This document shows positions 1,545 through 12,623 of a stretch of DNA of 31,255 bases, piece after piece (position 1 is the stretch's first letter; each line of letters starts with the position of its first letter). The notes under the pieces were generated by a model. The model did no database searches. It was not told where the DNA came from and worked only from the letters and a program-made list of their open reading frames with translations. A program made the position numbers and the translations under genes. Source of the stretch: Synechococcus sp. (GTDB lineage Bacteria > Cyanobacteriota > Cyanobacteriia > Thermostichales > PCC-7336); contig JBFRWD010000065.1 in the NCBI GenBank assembly GCA_051439425.1, positions 1-31,255 of the forward strand, given 5' to 3'.

Positions 1545-3008
1545 TTAAATGCGTCCTCTCAGCATTTGACTCATCTCATTCGAACGCGGAGATGCTTCCA
1601 ATGCCACCTCTGCCGTGATCTTGCCTTCTTCATACAGGTTGTAGAGGGATTGATTCATGGTCACCATGCCGTCATAGGTCGACTGAGGAATTAAGGCTTC
1701 GATGTCGTCGATCGCCCCTCGCTTGATGTAGTCCTTGACCGCATCAGTATTCACCAAAATTTCGTGGGCAGCAGCACGTTTGCCGTCAGTTGTTTTCACT
1801 AGGGTCTGTGCGATCGTGGCCACCATCGTTTCGGCAATTTGCAGACGCATGGGTTCCTGTTCGTCAGGATTGTAGATGTTGAGCAAACGTTCGATGGTTT
1901 TTACCGCACTGTTGGTGTGTAGGGTTCCAAACACCAAGTGACCAGTTTGACCGGCTTTGAGAGCGGTATCGACAGTTTCGCGATCGCGCATTTCGCCAAT
2001 CAGAATAATGTCGGGGTCTTCACGCAGCGACGCTTTCAGGGCGTTAGAAAACTCCAACGTATGAATCCCTACCTCCCGCTGCCGAATCATACTTTTCTGA
2101 CTGGAGTGCACGAATTCAATTGGGTCCTCAATCGAAATAAGGTGCTTGGCCATGGTGCGATTGATGAAATCCACCATCGCAGCCAAGGTCGTGGACTTAC
2201 CAGACCCCGTCGGGCCAGTGACCAGTACCAATCCTTTATGCTGCTTGGAAATATCTCGCAATACTTCCGGCAGATTGAGCTGTTCCATTGTCAAAATGGT
2301 CAGCGGAATTAGTCGCAGCACCATTGCAGGCCCGAGCAACGAGACAAACACGTTGACGCGGCAGCGTACAAATCCTTCGTAGTGAATCGCGGTATCCAGC
2401 TCCATGCGCTGGTTAAACTCTTCCACCTGCGATTCCGGGATTGATTCACGCATCCAACTGTAGAAGACGTCCTCAGTGGTGACGGGGTGAGAGCTGGGAA
2501 CCATTTCCCCTCGACCTCTAAACCGGGGAACTTCGCCAACTCCCAGATGAATATCGGAGTAATTATTTTCGAATGCTTCCCGCACTAGCTGCTCTAGCGT
2601 TACGTGATTGACCTTTGTTCGGGGGGCTGCAGTTTGAGGGGCATTCGTCCCAGGGCGAGCGGGAGGTCTTACCGGCGGAGCGGGAGGAGGAGGGGCTGCC
2701 GCCGCTAAAGGTCTGGCGGATATCGGCGGCGGCGGTGGAATTGCAGCAGAATCGATCGCCGTGGATGTTGAAATTGCTGTGGGAGTAGGAGGGCGATCGA
2801 AAATATCGGCAGGTAGTGGGGTTTGAGGAGGAGCAGGAGACGCCGCCGGAACCGCCCGTTTCCCCGATCGTGTGGGAGGACTATCCGCCAGAGTTTTATT
2901 CAAGGGATCGAGGGCGGTGCTGTCGGGGGATGCATCAGTACCGGTAGGGATAGGGGGTAACCCATTGACATCTGCAAAGGTGGGGGGCAGTCCGTTCGTT
3001 TCGCTCAT
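1545..3008 (-). CDS. pilT: Type IV pilus retraction ATPase PilT, PilT2-like with Pro-rich N-terminal extension
   Basis: SDIHL, Walker A GPTGSGKST, TIEDPIEF-like SIEDPIEF, LREDPDIILIGEMRD, GHLVFGTLHTNSA. About 130 aa Pro/Ala-rich N-terminus. Confidence 0.92.
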   Translation of the reverse strand: MSETNGLPPTFADVNGLPPIPTGTDASPDSTALDPLNKTLADSPPTRSGKRAVPAASPAPPQTPLPADIFDRPPTPTAISTSTAIDSAAIPPPPPISARPLAAAAPPPPAPPVRPPARPGTNAPQTAAPRTKVNHVTLEQLVREAFENNYSDIHLGVGEVPRFRGRGEMVPSSHPVTTEDVFYSWMRESIPESQVEEFNQRMELDTAIHYEGFVRCRVNVFVSLLGPAMVLRLIPLTILTMEQLNLPEVLRDISKQHKGLVLVTGPTGSGKSTTLAAMVDFINRTMAKHLISIEDPIEFVHSSQKSMIRQREVGIHTLEFSNALKASLREDPDIILIGEMRDRETVDTALKAGQTGHLVFGTLHTNSAVKTIERLLNIYNPDEQEPMRLQIAETMVATIAQTLVKTTDGKRAAAHEILVNTDAVKDYIKRGAIDDIEALIPQSTYDGMVTMNQSLYNLYEEGKITAEVALEASPRSNEMSQMLRGRI

Positions 3009-3244: not shown

Positions 3245-4462
3245 TTAGGTCAAGCGCTCTTTTGGGGCCAACAGTTGCTGGATTTGGGCTGCGATTCTTC
3301 GGGATGCTCCAGGGTGTCCCATGCGTAAAGTTGCATTCGCCTTTAAATTCGGAGGGTGTTCGAGAACATGCTGGATGGCAGTCGCGGCACCTTCGGGATT
3401 ACTGGCCAGCGTCACACTGGGCCCCAGCAATCGCCGTTGAGTTTCTGCAAAGGTATGGGTAAACTGCGGCCCCTCTCCCGGCATCGAAATAACAGGTTTT
3501 CCCAACCCCACACATTGTTCGTTAGCGGTACCGGCCATGCCCAGAACGGCATCAGCCCGTTGCGCGCACCCTGCAAAGTGCCCCTGAAACACAATGGGAG
3601 ATGGCAACTCATTGGGCCAGGCGTCTCGCAATCGATCGCAATCTAGCTGAGGCGCGATCGCCGCAAAGCAACAAATGGTATTCGGTAACAGACGAACAGC
3701 TGACGCCATCAAACTCCAGTTTCGATAGGCTTCAGGGCTGCGAGACCCCGGCAATAGCAGCAGCGCTGGCCGCTCGTCAGGGATGCGTGCCAAAAGGTTG
3801 GGATAACTGGAATTCAAGCGATTTGGATCGAGATCGTCCATCATTGGATTACCCATATCGAACACAGGCAATCCAAACTGCTTCAAGCTAGAGGCGGTCA
3901 AGGAGTCTCGGGGAAATACCGCCAGGCAGCGATTGGGGCGCATCAACCAACGCTCCCAGGGGGCGTACACCGTCAATGGTTTTTGATTCAATAGCATTCG
4001 GCCTTGGAGCCGCAGCTTGAGACGATTCCACCACCGATAAGGACCGCGATCTCCCACAATGAAATAATCGGACTTTGCCGTTCCAATAAAGGCATAAGGA
4101 CGACGACTCCAATAGGCCAACAGTTGTACGACGATATCCCCAACAGCCAGCACCAGATCGAATTGGGAACCGAACTGACGAATTGCCCTCATTTGACGCA
4201 GGGTTAATCCGGCCAGACCGCCACGGATGTCCCCTAAAAACTGCTTCCAATCCATGTACAGAAAGCCTCCTGAGGGCATTGTGTCTTGGACTGGACCTAC
4301 GAGCGGTATTCCTTGCTGTCGATAGGCATTTCCCCGCCCCACTATGGGCATCGCACTGACATCGATACCGAGCTGGCGAAGTTCCGCAGCTACCTGGATA
4401 GCAATTCGATCCTCTCCATAGCCATTACTGAGGCACAAGATACGCAGTTGCTGGGTGGGCAC
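3245..4462 (-). CDS. Lipid-A-disaccharide synthase-related protein (cyanobacterial GT-B family, TIGR03492-like)
   Basis: LCLSNGYGED, MPSGGF, AVGD, FIGTAKSDY, GNPMMD, LLPGSRSPEA, MAGTANEQCVGLGKP and GPQFT motifs. Confidence 0.82.
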   Translation of the reverse strand: MPTQQLRILCLSNGYGEDRIAIQVAAELRQLGIDVSAMPIVGRGNAYRQQGIPLVGPVQDTMPSGGFLYMDWKQFLGDIRGGLAGLTLRQMRAIRQFGSQFDLVLAVGDIVVQLLAYWSRRPYAFIGTAKSDYFIVGDRGPYRWWNRLKLRLQGRMLLNQKPLTVYAPWERWLMRPNRCLAVFPRDSLTASSLKQFGLPVFDMGNPMMDDLDPNRLNSSYPNLLARIPDERPALLLLPGSRSPEAYRNWSLMASAVRLLPNTICCFAAIAPQLDCDRLRDAWPNELPSPIVFQGHFAGCAQRADAVLGMAGTANEQCVGLGKPVISMPGEGPQFTHTFAETQRRLLGPSVTLASNPEGAATAIQHVLEHPPNLKANATLRMGHPGASRRIAAQIQQLLAPKERLT

Positions 4463-4989
4463 AGGGAAAACGGTAGCAACAATGGGCGATACACTCTATC
4501 AATCAATGAATTGAATAGCTCGTCAAGCAACGCTACATTGCTGCTGCTCGCATTCCTATGAACAAGACACGCCTTCATCGAGCAGGTGCCTAAAATCGAA
4601 CGTTCTGTGAAAAATCTTTAACCAAAGAGCACTCGGAGCATTCTAATCGGTGGGTCTAGGAGTTTTGCGTAACAAGTCAAGTTGCTTTCTTTGTGAAAAG
4701 GCACAAACGATTTGATTATTTAATGTTTCATTTAAGCCCCATTCGTTGTCAGCAATATAAACGTCTTGCATTGCCTATCTTTTCTGATGCGGCTCGGCGA
4801 CAATGAGGGCCGTAATGCTTATAGATGCTGGAGTTGTGCTTAAACGGGAGGACAAAATGCGTTATCCAAGCTTCCTCAATGATGTGCAATCCTTATTTAG
4901 ATCCGGGTGGATCTGAGTTCGTTTCTGGGAACATTGATATTCCGACGTGGAAAAACGGGCTCAGCTTCAGCCAGTAAACTAGGAGCGAA

Positions 4990-5772
4990 ATGGTATCGAT
5001 CTCTGCAAAATCAGTGGCATTTTCCCTGTCAATTGGGCCGCGCACAATCGGCACAGACGACCTTCCTAGCTTGCTCGAACGCTACCAATTGATGCCTCAG
5101 TTGGTTCGAGAGCTGGTGATTGATGATGCGATTTCATCAGTGGCCTTGGAACCTGGGGCGGTTGATGATGGGGTGATGCAGGTGCGTCTGCGGAATCAGA
5201 TTCAAACGGACGAACAGTTTTCAGCGTGGTTGGCCCATAACGACCTAACACAAGAGACTCTCGCCAGTCGACTGGAGCGCACGCTCAAAATTGAGCAGTT
5301 CAAACAGGATCGCTGGGATTCCAAGCTTGATGGCATCTTTCTGGAGAATAAAACCCAGTACGACAAGGCCATTTATTCGCTAATTCGGACTGAAGATGCT
5401 TATGCGGCTCAAGAGCTCTATTTCAGGCTGCAGGAAAACGACAAGGCGTTTGGCGAGATTGCCAGTCAGTACAGCCAAGGTCCCGAGGCCAAAACGGGGG
5501 GGATGGTTGGCCCTGTGCCGCTAGGCAACATCCATCCTTCATTGATACAAATCCTGTCTTCGAGCAAGCCGGGTCAGCTCCATCCTCCGGTTCGCCTGGA
5601 CAAGTGGAATGTGATTGTACGTCTGGAGCAAATGCTCCCGGCTCAATTGGACGATGCCATGCGTCAAACACTACTAACGCAGCTTTACGATGATTGGCTG
5701 GCCGAGGAAGTGGCAGACGTACTTGCGCACCACAATCAGCCAGCCACAACAGAATCAGCATCGCCCCAATAG
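4990..5772 (+). CDS. Parvulin/PpiC-type peptidyl-prolyl isomerase associated with type I secretion cassettes
   Basis: YSLIRT..AQELYFRLQE...FGEIASQYSQGPEAKTGGMVGPV parvulin-like core. No signal peptide. Directly upstream of the ABC transporter. Confidence 0.85.
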   Translation: MVSISAKSVAFSLSIGPRTIGTDDLPSLLERYQLMPQLVRELVIDDAISSVALEPGAVDDGVMQVRLRNQIQTDEQFSAWLAHNDLTQETLASRLERTLKIEQFKQDRWDSKLDGIFLENKTQYDKAIYSLIRTEDAYAAQELYFRLQENDKAFGEIASQYSQGPEAKTGGMVGPVPLGNIHPSLIQILSSSKPGQLHPPVRLDKWNVIVRLEQMLPAQLDDAMRQTLLTQLYDDWLAEEVADVLAHHNQPATTESASPQ

Positions 5773-5821
5773 CGCGCGACTGTAACCGATATCGAAGTAA
5801 CGGCCCTTCTTAAACGGCACT

Positions 5822-8800
5822 ATGACTTCAACATCTTCCCCGTCTTCGTCCTCTCCGTCCTCTACCGACAGTTGGTTGAGCCAGCAACCACCATTCGACC
5901 GATTGCCCCCCAACGCTATTTCTCAGCTGAGTCAGCAAGTTCGGTGGGTGCGTTATCGCATGGGGCAACCGATGGTGCCCCGCGATCGTCTCCCCGGCCA
6001 AATCTATATTCTGTCCAAAGGGCAAGCACGGACGATTGGCCACGATCCCGACACCAATATGCCTGCCTCTCTCGCATCGTTGGGCACCGGCCAGCTAGTG
6101 GGATGGTTAGGACTAGTACGCGATCGCCCCTGTGAAGCGGTGATTTCGTCAACCGAATCAACTGCGGCTGTCATGCCGTCGACAGCATTCCTCGAACTCC
6201 TCGAGCGCTATCCCGAACTGGCAAAGTGGACGCAAACGCCACAATTGTTGGAGGTGTATGACCTGCTCGGTATTTACTTGCAGGGTCGAGCAGATGGCAA
6301 AGTCATCTTCGAGCGACAAGGGGTTAACGATTTGCGGGAACTGACCCTCAAATTAGCTCCGCGAGCCACCCTGCAGATAGTAGAACGGGCCACCGATGCC
6401 GAATCTTTGGATGAAGATACCCTGTGGCTGGTGAGTAATGGGGCCGCTGTTGGCAGCGAAATTGAATCCGTAGGAGATGCGCAGCGGGTATTGGCTGAGG
6501 TAGAGGCCCCCCTGCGATTGATTGGCATTCCTGTTACAGCCTTGCTTAGTTCTAGCTCGGTTGCCCACGCCCTCTCTGTGGCGAGCAATGCCAAAACAAC
6601 AAAAACCTCAGCTCTAGCCAGTAGTGGGTCAAGTGCGTTGGCGCTAGACGGTACTGAAATTCCCTTTGCTGAAGGGGCACTAGAGACGTTACCGGATAGC
6701 CGCAAGCAGCGCCGCCAGAGTTCCAGCGAGCGGTTTCCGTTCGTGCGCGGTCGCGGACCGATTGACGCTCCGATGGCCTGCTTTCAGATGCTGAGCCAGT
6801 ACTTCAATGTTCCTTTCCGGCGAGATGTAGTGCGGCGGGTATTGCTCAATCAACAAGAGCGCGTTGGAACGATTTCGCTGCAGGCATGTGGAGCGATCGC
6901 CGAAATGATGGGGCTGAATGCTCAGTTGTTTGCTGCTCCCTCGGTGGCGATCGGGCAAATTCAGACTCCATCAATGCTGGAATGGCGCGATCGGTTAATC
7001 GTTGTGTTTGCCGCTAATGCCAAAGAACTAACGATTGCAATTCCCGAGGAGGGAATGCGCACGATCTCCATTGATGATTTCGTGCAGGCAGCAGGCGATG
7101 AAATTGAGGTGGTGTCACTGCAGAAAACGCAGTACACCCCCGAACAGCGATTCAGTCTCAAGTGGTTTTGGCCATCCATTGTCAAGTACCGAAAAGTACT
7201 GCTGGAAGTTCTAATTGCATCGATCTTCGTCCAGCTCTTTGCCTTAGCTAACCCGTTGATGGTGCAAATCATCATTGACAAGGTGATCGTGCAAGGGAGC
7301 CTCGCCACTCTGAATGTGTTGGGAGGCTTGCTGATTGCGGTCGCCCTGTTTGAAGGCATTTTGACTGCCATTCGTACCAATCTATTTGCCGATACGACGA
7401 ACCGAATTGATATGGCATTGGGAACGCAGGTGATTAATCACCTGCTGCACTTGCCCATGCGGTATTTTGGTCGGCGACCGGTGGGTGAGTTGGCCAGCCG
7501 TGTAAACGAGCTAGAAAATATCCGTCAGTTTTTAACGGGTACAGCTCTAACCGTGGTCTTGGATGCCATCTTCTCGGTGGTTTATATCGTTGTCATGCTG
7601 TTCTACAGCTGGCTTCTCACGCTTGTGGCCTTATCCACCGTGCCGCTGTTTGCCTTGCTGACCCTCACTGTTGCTCCCGTATTAAGACAGCAGGTTAGAA
7701 CTAAGGCAGAGCGTAATGCCGAGACCCAGGCCTATCTGGTTGAAGCAGTTTCGGGGATTGAAACAGTAAAGGCCCAAAATATCGAACTATCGACTCGCTG
7801 GCAGTGGCAACAAAAATATGCCCGCTACGTAAGTGCAGGCTTTAAAACAGTAATTACGTCCAGTACGGCTGGTTCTATCAGTAGCTTCTTGAATAAACTC
7901 TCAGGACTACTCCTGCTGTGGGTAGGCTCGGCCCTGGTATTGAGTGGCGATCTCACTCTAGGTCAAGTCATTGCGTTCCGGATTATTGCAGGCTATGTAA
8001 CCCAACCTCTATTGCGTCTGATTCAGCTTTGGCAAAACTTCCAAGAGACGGCTCTATCTCTAGAACGACTTAGCGACATCCTCGATCATCCTCAAGAGGT
8101 GGAAGGGGACGATCTCAACAACATCCCCATGCCTTCTATTCGGGGCGCTGTCGCGTTTGAGGATGTCAGTTTCCGCTTCAAAGACAGCGGGCCATTGCAG
8201 CTTAAGTCGGTTAATCTATCGTTCTCCCCCGGTCAGTTTGTCGGCATTGTGGGACAGAGTGGCTCTGGTAAGAGCACATTGATGAAACTGTTGATGCGGC
8301 TGTACAACCCTGTGGAGGGACGGATTACGGTCGATCGCTACGACATCCGCAAGGTCGACCTCTACTCGCTGCGACGTCAAATTGGCATGGTGTTGCAAGA
8401 CTCGTTGTTGTTTGAAGGAACGGTGCAGGAGAATATTGCGCTCACCAATCCTGACGCATCAGTTGAAGAAATCGTACAGGCGGCCAAAGTCGCATTTGCC
8501 CACGACTTCATCATGGAACTGCCCAATGGGTATAACACTCGGGTGGGTGAACGAGGGACAGGGTTGTCGGGCGGTCAGCGCCAACGGATCGCGATCGCTC
8601 GTGTTGTTTTGCAAAACCCCACTTTATTGATCATGGACGAGGCTACCAGTGCCCTCGATTACAATTCAGAACGGCAGGTGTGCACCAACCTAGCCAAAGC
8701 GTTCTCCGATCGCACGGTATTCTTTATCACCCACCGACTCAGCACGATTCGTCAGGCAGACACAATTGTAATGATGGATAAAGGCGCTCCCGCGGAGCAA

Positions 8801-8875
8801 GGGACTCACGATGAGCTCATGGCCCTTCGAGGTCGCTACTACACCCTTTACCAGCAACAAGAAGCAATGACGTAG
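5822..8875 (+). CDS. HlyB-family type I secretion ABC transporter (cNMP-like + C39-like + TMD + NBD)
   Basis: 1017 aa. N-terminal cNMP-fold segment, C39-like segment (DAPMACFQML), TMD (QIIIDKVI, ELENIRQFLTG), Walker A GQSGSGKST, LSGGQRQR, LIMDEAT. Confidence 0.92.
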   Translation: MTSTSSPSSSSPSSTDSWLSQQPPFDRLPPNAISQLSQQVRWVRYRMGQPMVPRDRLPGQIYILSKGQARTIGHDPDTNMPASLASLGTGQLVGWLGLVRDRPCEAVISSTESTAAVMPSTAFLELLERYPELAKWTQTPQLLEVYDLLGIYLQGRADGKVIFERQGVNDLRELTLKLAPRATLQIVERATDAESLDEDTLWLVSNGAAVGSEIESVGDAQRVLAEVEAPLRLIGIPVTALLSSSSVAHALSVASNAKTTKTSALASSGSSALALDGTEIPFAEGALETLPDSRKQRRQSSSERFPFVRGRGPIDAPMACFQMLSQYFNVPFRRDVVRRVLLNQQERVGTISLQACGAIAEMMGLNAQLFAAPSVAIGQIQTPSMLEWRDRLIVVFAANAKELTIAIPEEGMRTISIDDFVQAAGDEIEVVSLQKTQYTPEQRFSLKWFWPSIVKYRKVLLEVLIASIFVQLFALANPLMVQIIIDKVIVQGSLATLNVLGGLLIAVALFEGILTAIRTNLFADTTNRIDMALGTQVINHLLHLPMRYFGRRPVGELASRVNELENIRQFLTGTALTVVLDAIFSVVYIVVMLFYSWLLTLVALSTVPLFALLTLTVAPVLRQQVRTKAERNAETQAYLVEAVSGIETVKAQNIELSTRWQWQQKYARYVSAGFKTVITSSTAGSISSFLNKLSGLLLLWVGSALVLSGDLTLGQVIAFRIIAGYVTQPLLRLIQLWQNFQETALSLERLSDILDHPQEVEGDDLNNIPMPSIRGAVAFEDVSFRFKDSGPLQLKSVNLSFSPGQFVGIVGQSGSGKSTLMKLLMRLYNPVEGRITVDRYDIRKVDLYSLRRQIGMVLQDSLLFEGTVQENIALTNPDASVEEIVQAAKVAFAHDFIMELPNGYNTRVGERGTGLSGGQRQRIAIARVVLQNPTLLIMDEATSALDYNSERQVCTNLAKAFSDRTVFFITHRLSTIRQADTIVMMDKGAPAEQGTHDELMALRGRYYTLYQQQEAMT

Positions 8876-9106
8876 CTTGCATTGCGTCGTACCACCACCA
8901 ACATGCATCGGTGGAATGAGCCGATAGTGGGTAGCTCGCCTCGTTGACCGGTGTACGCTTATTTTTTCATTGTCTCTGGCTGCAATAACCCATTCGATCG
9001 CTCCCCCTAATCAGTAATGCTTTTGCGCCGGAATCGGCATCAACCCATCTAGCGCCAACCCATCTCACCTGACCCATTTCGAGGAATCCACAGAGGATTG
9101 TGTCCC

Positions 9107-10894
9107 ATGATTCGCATCCTGATTGTTGACGACCTAAAAACTGTCCGCCAAATGTTGCGGATGTTTGTTGAAAATCAGCCGGATCTGGAAGTGATCGGAA
9201 CTGCTGCAGATGGTGATACGGCCCTCGAACAGATTGCCATGCTGCAACCGGATGTTGCACTGGTTGACCTCGAAATGCCCGGCACCAACGGTTTGGAAGT
9301 GGTGCGCATTGCCGGACAGAACCACCCCAAAACTAAGATCCTGGTGTTGACCACAATGGATGGGGTGGATGTGGTGTCGCAAGCACTGCAGGCCGGGGCT
9401 AAAGGGTATTTGTTGAAAACAGCCTCGGAAGAGGATCTCATTAGTGCCATTCGCTCCGTGCACAAAGGATTTGTGCAACTCAGCCCCGGAATGCTAGAGC
9501 GGTTGGTAGATGCAGGAAACACGGGATCTGCACTAGCTCCGGTGGGGACGGGAGCCGCGATCGCTTCTGCTGACGACGTTACGGCGTTGGCGGCAAAATC
9601 CCCAACACAGCAGGATTTGCACCGCTTCGACCAACCCGTTGTGTTGCGGCAAGATCCCGTCTGGTCCCGCTGGATCTTACGCACGATTGTGGGGGCATCT
9701 GCTGGAGCGATTCTGTGGGCATCATTTGCCAAAATAGAGGCCGCTGTCCCTGCTCGCGGAAAATTAGAACCTAGCGGAACGGTTCAAGAAGTGCAGGTGC
9801 CCGTACCGGGTGTGGTCTCTGAAATCTTTATTCGGGACGGAGATACGGTTGAAGCGGGAGAGCTGCTCATGCGGCTAGATGCCACAGTCTCGACAGCTCA
9901 GTCCGAATCCATTCAGGATCGTCGTTCTCTGTTGCAAGAAGAGCGGGCTGTTTATCAAGCGCTACTGGCCAATCGGGGAGAGGAGTTGACTTGGTCATCC
10001 GAGGCTCGCGATCTCTACCGCTCGAATTCAGATCGCTTCCGCTCCGATGGTGAGGCTGCGCGATTGCAGATTAATCAGCTTCAACAGCAGTTGGCGCAGA
10101 CGGATGTTCAATTGCGCAATGAACGGGCCAATTTGGAGCTCAACGAGACCATCTTGGGGGATATTGAGCCGCTGTTCGAAGAGGGGGGAGTATCTCGCTT
10201 GCAATACCTCCGCCAGCAGCAGGAGGTGCAAACAAATGTATCGGAAATCGCTCGTATCGCCGAACAACAGGGCGAGCTTCGGTTTGCGATCGCTCAGGCC
10301 AACGAGCAGGTAACCTCTACCACATCCGAGTACGAACGGAACTGGAACAATCGCCTGCGCGAGGTGGAGCAGTTGCTGATTGAATCTGAATCTGAGTTGA
10401 CAGAGGTGGCCCAGACCCAGTTGTACGAAGAGATTCGGGCCCCAATTGACGGAACTATTTTTGATGTTCAGACTCCTCGGGTAGGAGCTGTCGTGAATGC
10501 CAGCGAACCGATCCTGAAAATTGTGCCTGGGGACACACTGGTCGCACGGGTGTTTATTACCAACCAAGACATCGGATTTTTGCGGATAGGTATGCCAGTT
10601 GATGTACGAATTGACTCGTATTCCTACAGCGAGTTTGGCGATATTAAAGGAGAGTTGGTTCATATCGGCTCGGATGCATTACCCCCCGATCCGGAGGCCA
10701 ATCGTCAGTTTGAAGCGTTTCCAGCCGAAGTAGTATTGGACGATCAGGTCCTGCGGGCGGGCAATTTCGAATTTAGCCTGCAGTCCGGGATGTCAGTCAG
10801 TGCCAACATTCGCACCCGCAAGCGGAGAGTCATTAGCATCTTTACAGAGCTATTCCAGAGAGGGGTGGTAGATCCCTTGACTCAAACTCAGTAG
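9107..10894 (+). CDS. Response-regulator receiver domain fused to HlyD-family membrane fusion protein
   Basis: ATG at 9107 with GAGGA upstream. aa 1-125 NarL-like REC (IVDD, LVDLEMP, VLTT, GYLLK). Then FDQPVVLRQ, a TM helix, lipoyl-like halves (VPVPGVV..IRDGDTV; IRAPIDGTI), a coiled coil and GMSVSANI. Confidence 0.9.
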   Translation: MIRILIVDDLKTVRQMLRMFVENQPDLEVIGTAADGDTALEQIAMLQPDVALVDLEMPGTNGLEVVRIAGQNHPKTKILVLTTMDGVDVVSQALQAGAKGYLLKTASEEDLISAIRSVHKGFVQLSPGMLERLVDAGNTGSALAPVGTGAAIASADDVTALAAKSPTQQDLHRFDQPVVLRQDPVWSRWILRTIVGASAGAILWASFAKIEAAVPARGKLEPSGTVQEVQVPVPGVVSEIFIRDGDTVEAGELLMRLDATVSTAQSESIQDRRSLLQEERAVYQALLANRGEELTWSSEARDLYRSNSDRFRSDGEAARLQINQLQQQLAQTDVQLRNERANLELNETILGDIEPLFEEGGVSRLQYLRQQQEVQTNVSEIARIAEQQGELRFAIAQANEQVTSTTSEYERNWNNRLREVEQLLIESESELTEVAQTQLYEEIRAPIDGTIFDVQTPRVGAVVNASEPILKIVPGDTLVARVFITNQDIGFLRIGMPVDVRIDSYSYSEFGDIKGELVHIGSDALPPDPEANRQFEAFPAEVVLDDQVLRAGNFEFSLQSGMSVSANIRTRKRRVISIFTELFQRGVVDPLTQTQ

Positions 10895-11111
10895 TCGAGA
10901 CGACGATGCTTGCAAGGTCATTTGCCATTCTTTAGCCTTCTGTACTTGCGTCAGCCTCGTTTCGGGTCAGGATAACGTCAGCGAAATTCCATCGAAAATA
11001 CAGGTTGTAGATGCGCGATCGCCATCCGATGCCCGTTACTATAAACTAAGGGCTGTCTAGTTCATTCAGGGCAGATCCGACAGATTTTCCGCTGTTTGGT
11101 TTGAGTAGGTT

Positions 11112-12623
11112 ATGGATCGGTTTGAGGATTCTGCACAGGCCCAGTCCCCATCCACTGACGATCTAGACCGACTCTCATCCAACAGTACTTCTACCCTGAT
11201 TCCAGAACCGCCGTCGCCAGCTTTTCCCAACAGCTCGAATCCATCCAACCAACGAGATCGGGTTATTCGGGACAGCATGGATAGTCATTGCCAAGATGCG
11301 GAGGCGGACGGCAATTATGCAGATGTATTGCAGAACAAGAATTTCTTAGTGCTGTGGGGAGGGCAGATTTTTTCCCAATTGGCAGACAAGGTGTTCTTAG
11401 TCCTACTGGTGGCGCTTGTCTCCTCTCACTACGCCCTGCAGCAAGATTCCATTAGTTCTTGGGTGGCAGCCATCATGGTGGCGTTTACCATCCCAGCCGT
11501 GCTGTTCGGCTCGATCGCGGGAGTGTATGTCGATCGCTGGTCCAAGAAATGGGTCATGGTCGGCACCAATCTGGTGCGCGGTCTCCTCGTGTTAGCTGTT
11601 CCGCTCTTGTTTGCGGGATTCAACTCGATGATTGACTCACCCCTCTATCTGTGGGGGTGGCCGCTCGATTTTGTTGCCCTGTTGGGGATTACCTTTGCTG
11701 TGTCTACGCTGACGCAGTTTTTTGCCCCAGCCGAACAAACGGCCATTCCGCTGATTGTACGTAAGCGCAATCTACTGCCTGCGAATTCCCTTTACACCAC
11801 AACCATGATGGCGTCTGTCATTATTGGTTTTGCCATCGGAGAACCGATTTTGGCACTGGCTAACCAAGTATCGATGTGGCTGAATTGGGGGCCGGAACTC
11901 GGCTCCGAGCTGGCAGTGGGGGGAGGGTATGCCATTGCTGGTGCGCTTCTATTGGCAATGGTCACCGGGGAACGCCGCCAGCAGCCCAGTAGCTCGGAAC
12001 CGAACCGCCAAGTGTGGCAAGACATTCGCGAGGGGCTGCGCTATTTGGGACGCACTGTTAGGGTGCGGACTGCAATTGGCCAAATGGTCATTTTGTTTTC
12101 GATATTTGCGGCTCTGGCAGTTCTGGCAGTCAGATTGGCCGAGTTGATCCCCGAGTTATCAGCCGCTCAGTTTGGTGTACTGTTGGCTGCTGCTGGCATT
12201 GGGATGGGGCTGGGAGCACTAATCGTCGGGCAATGGGGAGCGCGCCTTTCCCGACAGATGTGGAGTGCGATCGGGTCTGTAGGCGTTGCAGCTTCATTGA
12301 TGGCATTGGCTATGATGGATCCGGTGCTTTGGCCTAGCTTGCTTGGAATTGCTGGATTGGGATGTGCGGGGGCAATGGTTGGGGTTCCGATGCAAACGTT
12401 GATCCAGGAAGAAACGCCATCGGCGATGCGGGGTAAGGTATTTGGCCTGCAGAATAATTTGGTGAACATTGCTTTGTCCCTGCCGCTAGCTTTGGCCAGT
12501 GTGGCTGAAAACAAATTTGGGTTGTCTCCAGTCCTCATGACTCTTGCTGCCCTGTCCGTTCTCTCTGCTGTCGTGGGCTGGAAAGCAATGGAGTCAGACA
12601 CGAGTGCAAGTAGTTGCCAGTAG
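11112..12623 (+). CDS. MFS transporter (conserved cyanobacterial family)
   Basis: NFLVLWGGQIFSQLADK, AGVYVDRW, TQFFAPAEQ, MRGKVFGLQNN. About 12 hydrophobic segments. True start may be downstream (e.g. Met at 11277). Confidence 0.87.
   Translation: MDRFEDSAQAQSPSTDDLDRLSSNSTSTLIPEPPSPAFPNSSNPSNQRDRVIRDSMDSHCQDAEADGNYADVLQNKNFLVLWGGQIFSQLADKVFLVLLVALVSSHYALQQDSISSWVAAIMVAFTIPAVLFGSIAGVYVDRWSKKWVMVGTNLVRGLLVLAVPLLFAGFNSMIDSPLYLWGWPLDFVALLGITFAVSTLTQFFAPAEQTAIPLIVRKRNLLPANSLYTTTMMASVIIGFAIGEPILALANQVSMWLNWGPELGSELAVGGGYAIAGALLLAMVTGERRQQPSSSEPNRQVWQDIREGLRYLGRTVRVRTAIGQMVILFSIFAALAVLAVRLAELIPELSAAQFGVLLAAAGIGMGLGALIVGQWGARLSRQMWSAIGSVGVAASLMALAMMDPVLWPSLLGIAGLGCAGAMVGVPMQTLIQEETPSAMRGKVFGLQNNLVNIALSLPLALASVAENKFGLSPVLMTLAALSVLSAVVGWKAMESDTSASSCQ

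Follow-up and report, generated by a model that had tools for sequence, protein, structure and literature searches.

Gene organization and integrity of the reading frame

The stretch of DNA considered here (the window) comprises 31,255 nucleotides of contig JBFRWD010000065.1 in the assembly GCA_051439425.1 of Synechococcus sp., a marine cyanobacterium whose genome measures 4.8 Mb and is 96% complete. The gene in question, the last of a three-gene locus, joins a receiver domain (REC; CheY-like, Pfam PF00072) to an adaptor of the HlyD type, the membrane-fusion component of type I secretion (Table 1). The open frame spans 9098..10894 on the forward strand, and translation from 9107 to 10894 gives 595 residues with zero internal stops, as described in an earlier note made from the DNA letters without database searches, which had proposed a single unbroken open reading frame (ORF) running from the receiver into HlyD. 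Close homologs likewise begin with MIR, which makes ATG 9107 the likely start, and residues are numbered from it throughout.

The earlier note had called for a check of misassembly across 9480-9640 and for a search for a stop or frameshift between the two parts. A contig from run X1, a possible source run, spans 8800-10557 with 0 differences, and one from run X3, which belongs to a separate study, spans 9418-9611, again with 0 differences. Run X2, which is 97-98% alike, covers the ORF to 10793 save for a contig break at 9476-9512, with 10794-10863 uncovered, and no indel was found within the ORF in any of the three runs. The same fused frame is present in all four species of the genus (identities of 100/90/79/61%), again with neither stop nor frameshift. 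To the extent that contigs allow a judgment, misassembly is thus excluded, and the contigs together with the four species rule out an artefact or frameshift as the origin of the fusion. Identity to the three congeneric orthologs is 94/89/57% for the receiver and 87/76/59% for the periplasmic part. Synonymous sites are saturated among the congeners, and the ratio of nonsynonymous to synonymous change (dN/dS) of REC is ~0.03 against the closest ortholog, showing that the receiver is under strong purifying selection.

Domain architecture of the REC-HlyD protein

The N-terminal part matches Pfam Response_reg at residues 4-116, over all 111 positions of the profile (E 6e-25; 88 bits, with the cut-off at 30.2). 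An AlphaFold2 model, computed from an alignment of 23 fused homologs and to be read as a prediction, not a solved structure, gives this part a (beta-alpha)5 fold with strands at 2-7, 27-33, 50-54, 77-82 and 100-103, five helices and a predicted local distance difference test score (pLDDT) of about 80-91. The receiver had been described as NarL-like, and its best matches are NarL-class regulators, namely MctR, MadR, NarL and UvrY in NCBIfam and VraR, DesR and NarL among solved structures (VraR 5hev_A, E 6.6e-21). It is 30-40% alike to the receivers of NarL, VraR and DesR over ~135 residues and shares all of their active-site residues, the region after helix 5 being alignable as well. Unlike NarL/FixJ regulators, the window protein lacks a LuxR/GerE helix-turn-helix (HTH) and has a membrane anchor and a secretion adaptor as its output: every full-length NarL-type NCBIfam model scored far under its cut-off on this protein, and none of the five Pfam families listed for it is DNA-binding, those C-terminal to Response_reg including Biotin_lipoyl_2, HlyD_D23 and HlyD_3. 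The HTH was thus looked for and is absent, as the earlier note had held, which excludes the protein from the NarL/FixJ transcription factors.

All six receiver residues named at the outset (D8, D9, D54, T82, Y101 and K104) were found. Their conservation was counted over 34 aligned REC-adaptor fusions, which also answers the question, raised in the earlier note, of whether the phospho-acceptor is kept in homologs: D54 is present in 34/34, as is T or S at position 82, Y101 and K104 in 33/34 each, D9 in 32/34 and D8 in 30/34. With every active-site residue retained, the window receiver appears to be phosphorylation-competent. It is followed by a conserved segment with the consensus HKGYxQLGPGLxEK across the same 34 fusions (G121 in 32/34, P127 in 30/34 and G128 in 30/34), a motif shared with the tail-anchored REC paralogs discussed below.

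The receiver is connected to the adaptor by the Ala/Gly-rich linker previously noted, residues 137-165 comprising 9 Ala and 4 Gly among 29, and residues 137-182 are predicted to be disordered (pLDDT <50). The linker is also the least conserved region, with 62% and 47% identity to the orthologs that are 79% and 61% identical overall. It gives way to the motif FDQPVVLRQDPVWSR, where a comparison of 23 fusions shows F174, V178, L180, W186 and R188 to be either invariant or conserved to at least 90%. The sole strongly hydrophobic stretch, residues 190-208, holds the best 19-residue hydropathy window (value 1.5), and the AlphaFold2 model places a membrane helix at 184-207. Given this predicted topology, with the receiver N-terminal to the lone membrane helix of a bona fide type I adaptor, the receiver must be cytoplasmic, in agreement with the side of the membrane first assigned to it. 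The adaptor part matches TIGR01843 (type_I_hlyD) over residues 188-582 and profile positions 5-410 of 422, scoring 256.5 bits where the curated cut-off is 208.65, and on the strength of this coverage and score the HlyD part is complete, as had been claimed; helices are modelled at 260-287, 298-358 and 364-439 with flanking strands. These profile matches place the adaptor part in the HlyD type I family and the receiver in the NarL class of the REC superfamily.

The REC-HlyD locus and its conservation in cyanobacteria

The gene preceding the fusion encodes an exporter of the ATP-binding cassette (ABC) family with a cyclic-nucleotide-binding (cNMP) domain at residues 43-130, a C39-like domain at residues ~315-421, a transmembrane domain and an ATPase. 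It scores 761 bits against TIGR01846 (cut-off 725.55), and its residues 315-1013 align with residues 8-705 of E. coli HlyB (7sgr_J, E 2e-172). The C39-like domain scores 20.5 in Pfam, under the cut-off of 22, and its catalytic cysteine is missing; Ala316 is aligned with Tyr9 of HlyB, the site of the lost catalytic cysteine, the C39-like domain of HlyB being a degenerate peptidase. The spacer between the exporter and fusion genes showed no sigma-70-like site and no convincing terminator, and in related loci the corresponding distance, taken up to the conserved HlyD part, is similar (median 246 nt). In a scan of 4600-11300, promoter-like sites numbered 0 where chance would give 4.4, and the 7 terminator-like sites equalled the chance expectation of 7.0. 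No histidine kinase was found among the 20 of 26 ORFs of at least 150 aa that were scanned in the window, the other six lying inside or overlapping larger genes in another strand or frame, which agrees with the earlier statement that the window encodes none.

Table 1. Positions of the REC-HlyD gene, its parts and its neighbors in the window, and of candidate partner genes at other loci (prefixed L) of the same genome.
Feature	Position	Strand	Basis or remark
PpiC-type peptidyl-prolyl isomerase-like gene, 260 aa	4990..5772	+	Pfam Rotamase, E 1.6e-9
HlyB-type ABC exporter gene, 1017 aa	5822..8875	+	Pfam, TIGR01846, match to E. coli HlyB
Intergenic spacer, hlyB to REC-hlyD, 231 nt	8876..9106		Similar gaps in related loci
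REC-HlyD fusion gene	9107..10894	+	595 aa plus stop
REC domain, aa 1-120	9107..9466	+	Pfam, model, VraR match
D54 codon, GAC	9266-9268	+	DNA reading
Post-receiver motif HKGFVQLSPGMLERL, aa 119-133	9461..9505	+	Conserved; short helix at 129-137
Ala/Gly-rich flexible linker, aa 138-173	9518..9625	+	Low pLDDT, low conservation
Cytoplasmic HlyD motif FDQPVVLRQDPVWSR, aa 174-188	9626..9670	+	Immediately precedes membrane helix
Single transmembrane helix, aa ~189-208	9671..9730	+	Hydropathy, model, 8dck_C alignment
Periplasmic adaptor part: lipoyl domain, long alpha-helical hairpin, beta-barrel	9731..10891	+	Pfam, TIGR01843, model
HisKA_3 multi-GAF kinase gene, contig C108	L140:4270-7833	+	Without adjacent regulator
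870-aa gene, RTX repeats and beta-helix	L140:18-2630	+	Beside HisKA_3 kinase
Tail-anchored REC paralog	L137:933-1652	+	
Tail-anchored REC paralog	L137:3163-3915	+	
Tail-anchored REC paralog	L138:8708-9589	+	
Tail-anchored REC paralog	L138:9998-10789	+	
Tail-anchored REC paralog	L139:8496-9320	-	

Related loci were collected as the best 80 from a scan of one genome per species. An HlyB-type exporter lies just upstream on the same strand in 73 of these 80, with a core identity of 69-95%, and 68 of those 73 exporters include the cNMP part, the other five being cut by contig ends; a PpiC-like homolog is found upstream on the same strand in 32/80. The loci belong to Nostoc, Leptolyngbya, Scytonema and metagenome-assembled genomes of Gloeobacterales, among others, and since the exporter is retained at 73 loci in such distant cyanobacteria, the operon is a widespread cyanobacterial type I system. 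The receiver is fused at only three of the 80 loci, those of two congeners and of Altericista sp. CCNU0014, and to judge from these comparisons it is a lineage-specific addition to a widespread operon. REC-less orthologs start with a low-complexity N-terminal tail of 20-80 residues, followed by FDQPV.L.Q...WSR before the membrane helix; as this element is shared, REC was inserted upstream of the cytoplasmic element of the adaptor without replacing it.

Several individual loci may be recorded here. The order of PpiC-like gene, cNMP-domain HlyB and HlyD is kept in very distant cyanobacteria. In Altericista sp. CCNU0014 (L090, 9108-19240) the PpiC-like gene and REC-HlyD occur with no exporter within 10 kb, and downstream lie a DDE transposase and then a 1422-aa RTX/Calx-beta/CARDB protein, a likely type I substrate. 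In the complete genome that carries the 61% ortholog (L130, G404:C1, 3008-16259), the REC-HlyD system stands back to back with a second exporter system made up of a 1051-aa exporter with cNMP, true C39 peptidase and ABC parts, a 472-aa adaptor and a second rotamase-like gene, and a TIR-domain gene adjoins the two systems.

Distribution and evolution of the fusion

The occurrence of the fusion per genome was surveyed in a phylum sample of 401 genomes. With the whole protein as query, 99 genomes match at E 1e-40 or better, the matches starting at residue 1 being only those of the window protein itself, a 761-aa frame (genome G101) and a 616-aa frame (genome G288). With the receiver as query, 75 genomes match at E 1e-28 or better, and receiver-matching frames of at least 550 aa are confined to four of them, the window genome (G000), G101, G288 and G290; the last three have 2-3 long REC frames each, and two of all these long frames were confirmed as adaptors. 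At the level of proteins, 45 of the best 150 clusters at 50% identity combine REC with an adaptor and 105 have the adaptor only. The fused matches bearing organism names are all cyanobacterial (Synechococcus sp. PCC 7336, Hydrococcus, Acaryochloris, Pleurocapsa and Xenococcaceae), and clusters of the ESM Atlas with both domains have 213, 88 and 65 members. The databases thus already contain hundreds of members of the fusion under generic names, relatives being entered as 'HlyD family type I secretion periplasmic adaptor subunit' or 'response regulator'. As far as these homology searches reach, the fusion is rare per genome yet diverse in sequence, and it is found in several cyanobacterial lineages and adaptor classes.

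An adaptor tree was computed with FastTree from 238 adaptor domains, selected out of 253 adaptor-matching proteins by requiring at least 330 profile positions. To account for the REC label on this tree, 9 changes are required; supported branches force no fewer than 7, and at least 1 of the 9 is due to a truncated protein (P0009). The pattern suggests repeated gains, losses or domain shuffling of REC on adaptors. The backbone of the receiver tree (99 rows, 135 columns) is not resolved; it groups the window receiver with the fusion receivers of the Acaryochloris/Altericista type (support 97) and places those of the Pleurocapsa type elsewhere. The same type of receiver is also carried by other adaptor classes. 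P0088, a homologous protein of 594 aa from a metagenome that is ~31% identical overall, bears a window-clade receiver on a different class of adaptor, suggesting that the receiver module moved between adaptors. In G288 (L132, G288:C88, 127-5495), a 608-aa REC-adaptor fusion is followed by genes for UDP-glucose dehydrogenase and a 686-aa GT2 glycosyltransferase, a neighborhood which points to polysaccharide export, possibly under receiver control, and a DUF4388-REC protein is encoded close by.

Comparison with characterized export systems

The closest structural reference is the E. coli haemolysin system HlyB-HlyD-TolC (7sgr and 8dck). Residues 188-591 of the window adaptor align with HlyD (8dck_C) from its residue 58 (E 7e-29), and in both systems the adaptor crosses the membrane with one helix and has its N-terminus in the cytoplasm, while the C39-like domain of the exporter is missing the catalytic cysteine. 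They differ in that the cytoplasmic portion of E. coli HlyD is just a short tail devoid of a receiver, and that HlyB has no N-terminal cNMP domain; to our knowledge, the haemolysin operon is also without a PpiC-like gene. Among cyanobacteria, a type I system formed by Sll1180 (ABC), Sll1181 (adaptor) and Slr1270 (TolC) has been characterized in Synechocystis sp. PCC 6803, where it is reported to export the S-layer RTX protein Sll1951 (PMC11594277). The window operon, a conserved cyanobacterial HlyB-HlyD locus, is likened to this system by description.

The nearest functional precedent for the fusion is Alg44, which is reported to comprise a cytoplasmic PilZ domain, one membrane helix and a MexA/HlyD-like periplasmic domain and to place alginate export under the control of cyclic di-GMP (PMC8892547). 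Both proteins thus join a cytoplasmic signalling domain via one membrane helix to an adaptor-like domain, but the input to Alg44 is cyclic di-GMP on PilZ and not aspartate phosphorylation, and its cargo is a polysaccharide and not a protein. The window protein gave no Pfam match to a PilZ domain, so that the resemblance is one of architecture and logic only. For the exporter, the nearest cyanobacterial precedent is HetC of Nostoc PCC 7120, an ABC exporter which, like the window HlyB, carries an N-terminal cNMP-type domain; this domain is reported to bind ppGpp (guanosine tetraphosphate) in vitro and to be required in vivo, and according to the same report the C39 peptidase of HetC is active and its gene has no adaptor gene in the vicinity (PMC10986499). 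The window exporter differs from HetC in its degenerate C39-like domain and in being paired with a REC-bearing adaptor.

Partner proteins and receiver paralogs in the genome

The HlyB-HlyD pair of the window is the only one in the genome above the cut-offs of both TIGR01843 and TIGR01846, a weaker second pair being located on contig C126, and a single TolC-like frame (582 aa, two OEP repeats) is present on contig C85. RTX proteins are reported to be abundant in cyanobacteria (PMC3034196). The 108 RTX-repeat matches of this genome fall in about 21 open frames on 17 contigs, which are candidate type I substrates.

The sole kinase of the HisKA_3 class found in the genome is a cytoplasmic protein of 1187 aa with three GAF domains, HisKA_3 and HATPase, and it is a candidate phosphodonor for the receiver. 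Orthologs of this kinase occur in all three congeners, in one of which the HisKA_3 profile missed it.

The closest receiver paralogs are five proteins of 239-293 aa encoded on contigs C12 (two), C103 (two) and C156, each of which has a NarL-class REC that includes the HKGYxQLGPG motif and is joined by a linker to a C-terminal membrane helix; none has a DNA-binding domain. Among the best 120 database relatives of one of them, a C-terminal helix is present in 119/120 and the receiver is the sole Pfam domain in 120/120. Sources name these tail-anchored relatives 'response regulator transcription factor', a label which is misleading because the defining HTH is absent. As the closest paralogs are tethered to the membrane and devoid of a DNA-binding domain, this receiver subfamily seems to be specialized for action at the membrane. 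The paralog pair on contig C103 adjoins sugar-transferase genes of the WecG, Bac_transf and GT2 families.

A putative phosphorylation-dependent gate on type I secretion

Taken together, the gene is seen as the membrane-fusion adaptor of the only bona fide type I system of this genome, with a receiver tethered at its cytoplasmic N-terminus by ~50 flexible residues. From this anatomy, from the conservation of the receiver and from the behavior of NarL-class receivers, it is proposed that phosphorylation of the receiver gates secretion post-translationally, a reading to which we would give a probability of roughly 55%. In such a mechanism, an unlinked kinase or a small phosphodonor would phosphorylate D54, and the phosphorylated receiver would then dimerize, as receivers of the NarL, DesR and VraR type do. 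The receiver dimers would rearrange the cytoplasmic ends of the adaptor oligomer beside HlyB, whereby assembly, substrate engagement or recruitment of TolC could be switched on or off, and this post-translational control would act alongside the nucleotide-binding domain of the exporter. In E. coli, the N-terminus of HlyD is needed for the substrate-triggered recruitment of TolC. The entries 7sgr and 8dck contain six HlyB and six HlyD chains each, and with six HlyD chains per complex an arrangement of three receiver dimers would, as a matter of speculation, be geometrically tidy. A complex prediction for receiver residues 1-140 with the N-terminal 445 residues of the exporter scored 0.00 in both runs, which were made without controls, and speaks neither for nor against an interaction.

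A number of observations weigh against phosphorylation-gated secretion. The orthologous system runs without REC at 77 of the 80 best loci, and since most cyanobacteria manage without it, the receiver is an optional add-on. A few fusions have degenerate receivers, the homologous proteins P0028 with E in place of K104 and P0096 without acidic residues at positions 8 and 9, and phosphorylation may therefore be of no importance in some lineages. No kinase lies beside the fusion, either in the window or in five other annotated fused loci. Orthologs of the HisKA_3 kinase are found also in two related genera with a REC-less HlyD, so that the presence of the kinase fails to track that of the fusion. 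Dimerization, like the response of the adaptor to it, is an extrapolation from regulators that are soluble, while phosphorylation and its consequence for secretion are what we infer, the phosphodonor being at most a candidate.

The same observations lend themselves to other explanations. The receiver could be phosphorylated and yet exert no control over secretion, serving instead, at the membrane and on an abundant envelope protein, as a phosphate sink or docking site that tunes a two-component pathway with its true output elsewhere, or as a reporter that feeds the state of the secretion machine back into that pathway. No output is readable from its sequence, the genome holds five more output-less, membrane-tethered receivers and one HisKA_3 kinase, an assembly that resembles a multi-receiver network sharing few kinases, and REC-less orthologs serve the same operon in most cyanobacteria. 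A sink or reporter would have no need of a covalent link to the adaptor, yet REC has repeatedly been joined to several adaptor classes, including by swaps as in P0088, and none of the four species of the genus has lost the fusion; this explanation is considered unlikely. Slightly less probable still is a phosphorylation-independent receiver that acts as a structural domain for oligomerization or docking, functionally a pseudo-receiver, and aids the assembly of adaptor and HlyB, as could be supposed from the degenerate active sites of P0028 and P0096 and from the want of a linked cognate kinase in the scanned ORFs of the window and at the five other loci. The acidic pocket, D54, T/S82 and K104 are present in 30-34 of 34 fusions and persist in the genus despite saturated synonymous change, and such conservation of the active site would not be expected were its chemistry unused.

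Translation from an internal start, yielding a REC-free adaptor with the upstream receiver as a separate or dispensable product, was also weighed. ATG, GTG and TTG codons do occur within residues 102-195, the ATG at residue 129 being one of them, and REC-less orthologs begin 20-80 residues ahead of the membrane helix. However, no Shine-Dalgarno-like sequence precedes the internal starts, M129 is particular to the clade of the window and is L in other fusions, four species and dozens of clusters have the frame unbroken, and the linker has never gained a stop although it is the fastest-evolving part, all of which makes this explanation very improbable.

Gating of the type I machine by the phosphorylated receiver might also be one instance of something broader. 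It is possible, albeit rather doubtful as a whole, that a cyanobacterial class of membrane-tethered receivers wires two-component signalling to envelope export machines and so bypasses transcription. This class would consist of REC-adaptor fusions on adaptors of the type I, DevB-like and polysaccharide-export kinds together with the tail-anchored REC proteins misnamed as transcription factors. In the type I case, six receivers would form three dimers matching three HlyB dimers and would constitute, with the nucleotide-binding domain of the exporter, a two-input gate for RTX proteins.

Accounts of type I secretion usually place its control in transcription and in the arrival of the substrate, and a receiver on the adaptor would, if the proposed gating holds, add a fast, kinase-fed layer of post-translational control. 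As the exporter also has a nucleotide-binding domain, two cytoplasmic signals could converge on one machine, and with a single bona fide type I system facing about 21 RTX candidates, the switch could govern surface-layer, motility and adhesion proteins together. A full-text search of the literature returned no description of a receiver-HlyD fusion or of the tail-anchored receiver family, although older surveys of response regulators may list the fusion. The parts, and the logic of a cytoplasmic sensor on an adaptor, are hence familiar, whereas the combination of a receiver with a type I adaptor and the two-input gating are not described in the literature searched. A cultured strain, given by its source as Synechococcus sp. 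PCC 7336, has a fused ortholog, which opens the idea to testing by point mutants, and a phospho-switchable adaptor, if real, would be useful for controlled protein export in cyanobacterial biotechnology.

Additional observations

Close to two of the tail-anchored paralogs on contig C12, the S-adenosylmethionine synthetase gene (L137:4286-5580, reverse strand) is present as two overlapping ORFs, one encoding the N domain and the other the central and C domains, a split which may be due to a frameshift or an assembly error. In the window itself, a 405-aa ORF without Pfam match (3245-4462, reverse strand) separates a type II/IV secretion ATPase gene (1545-3008) from the PpiC-like gene, and it is conserved with 79% and 62% identity in two congeneric loci.

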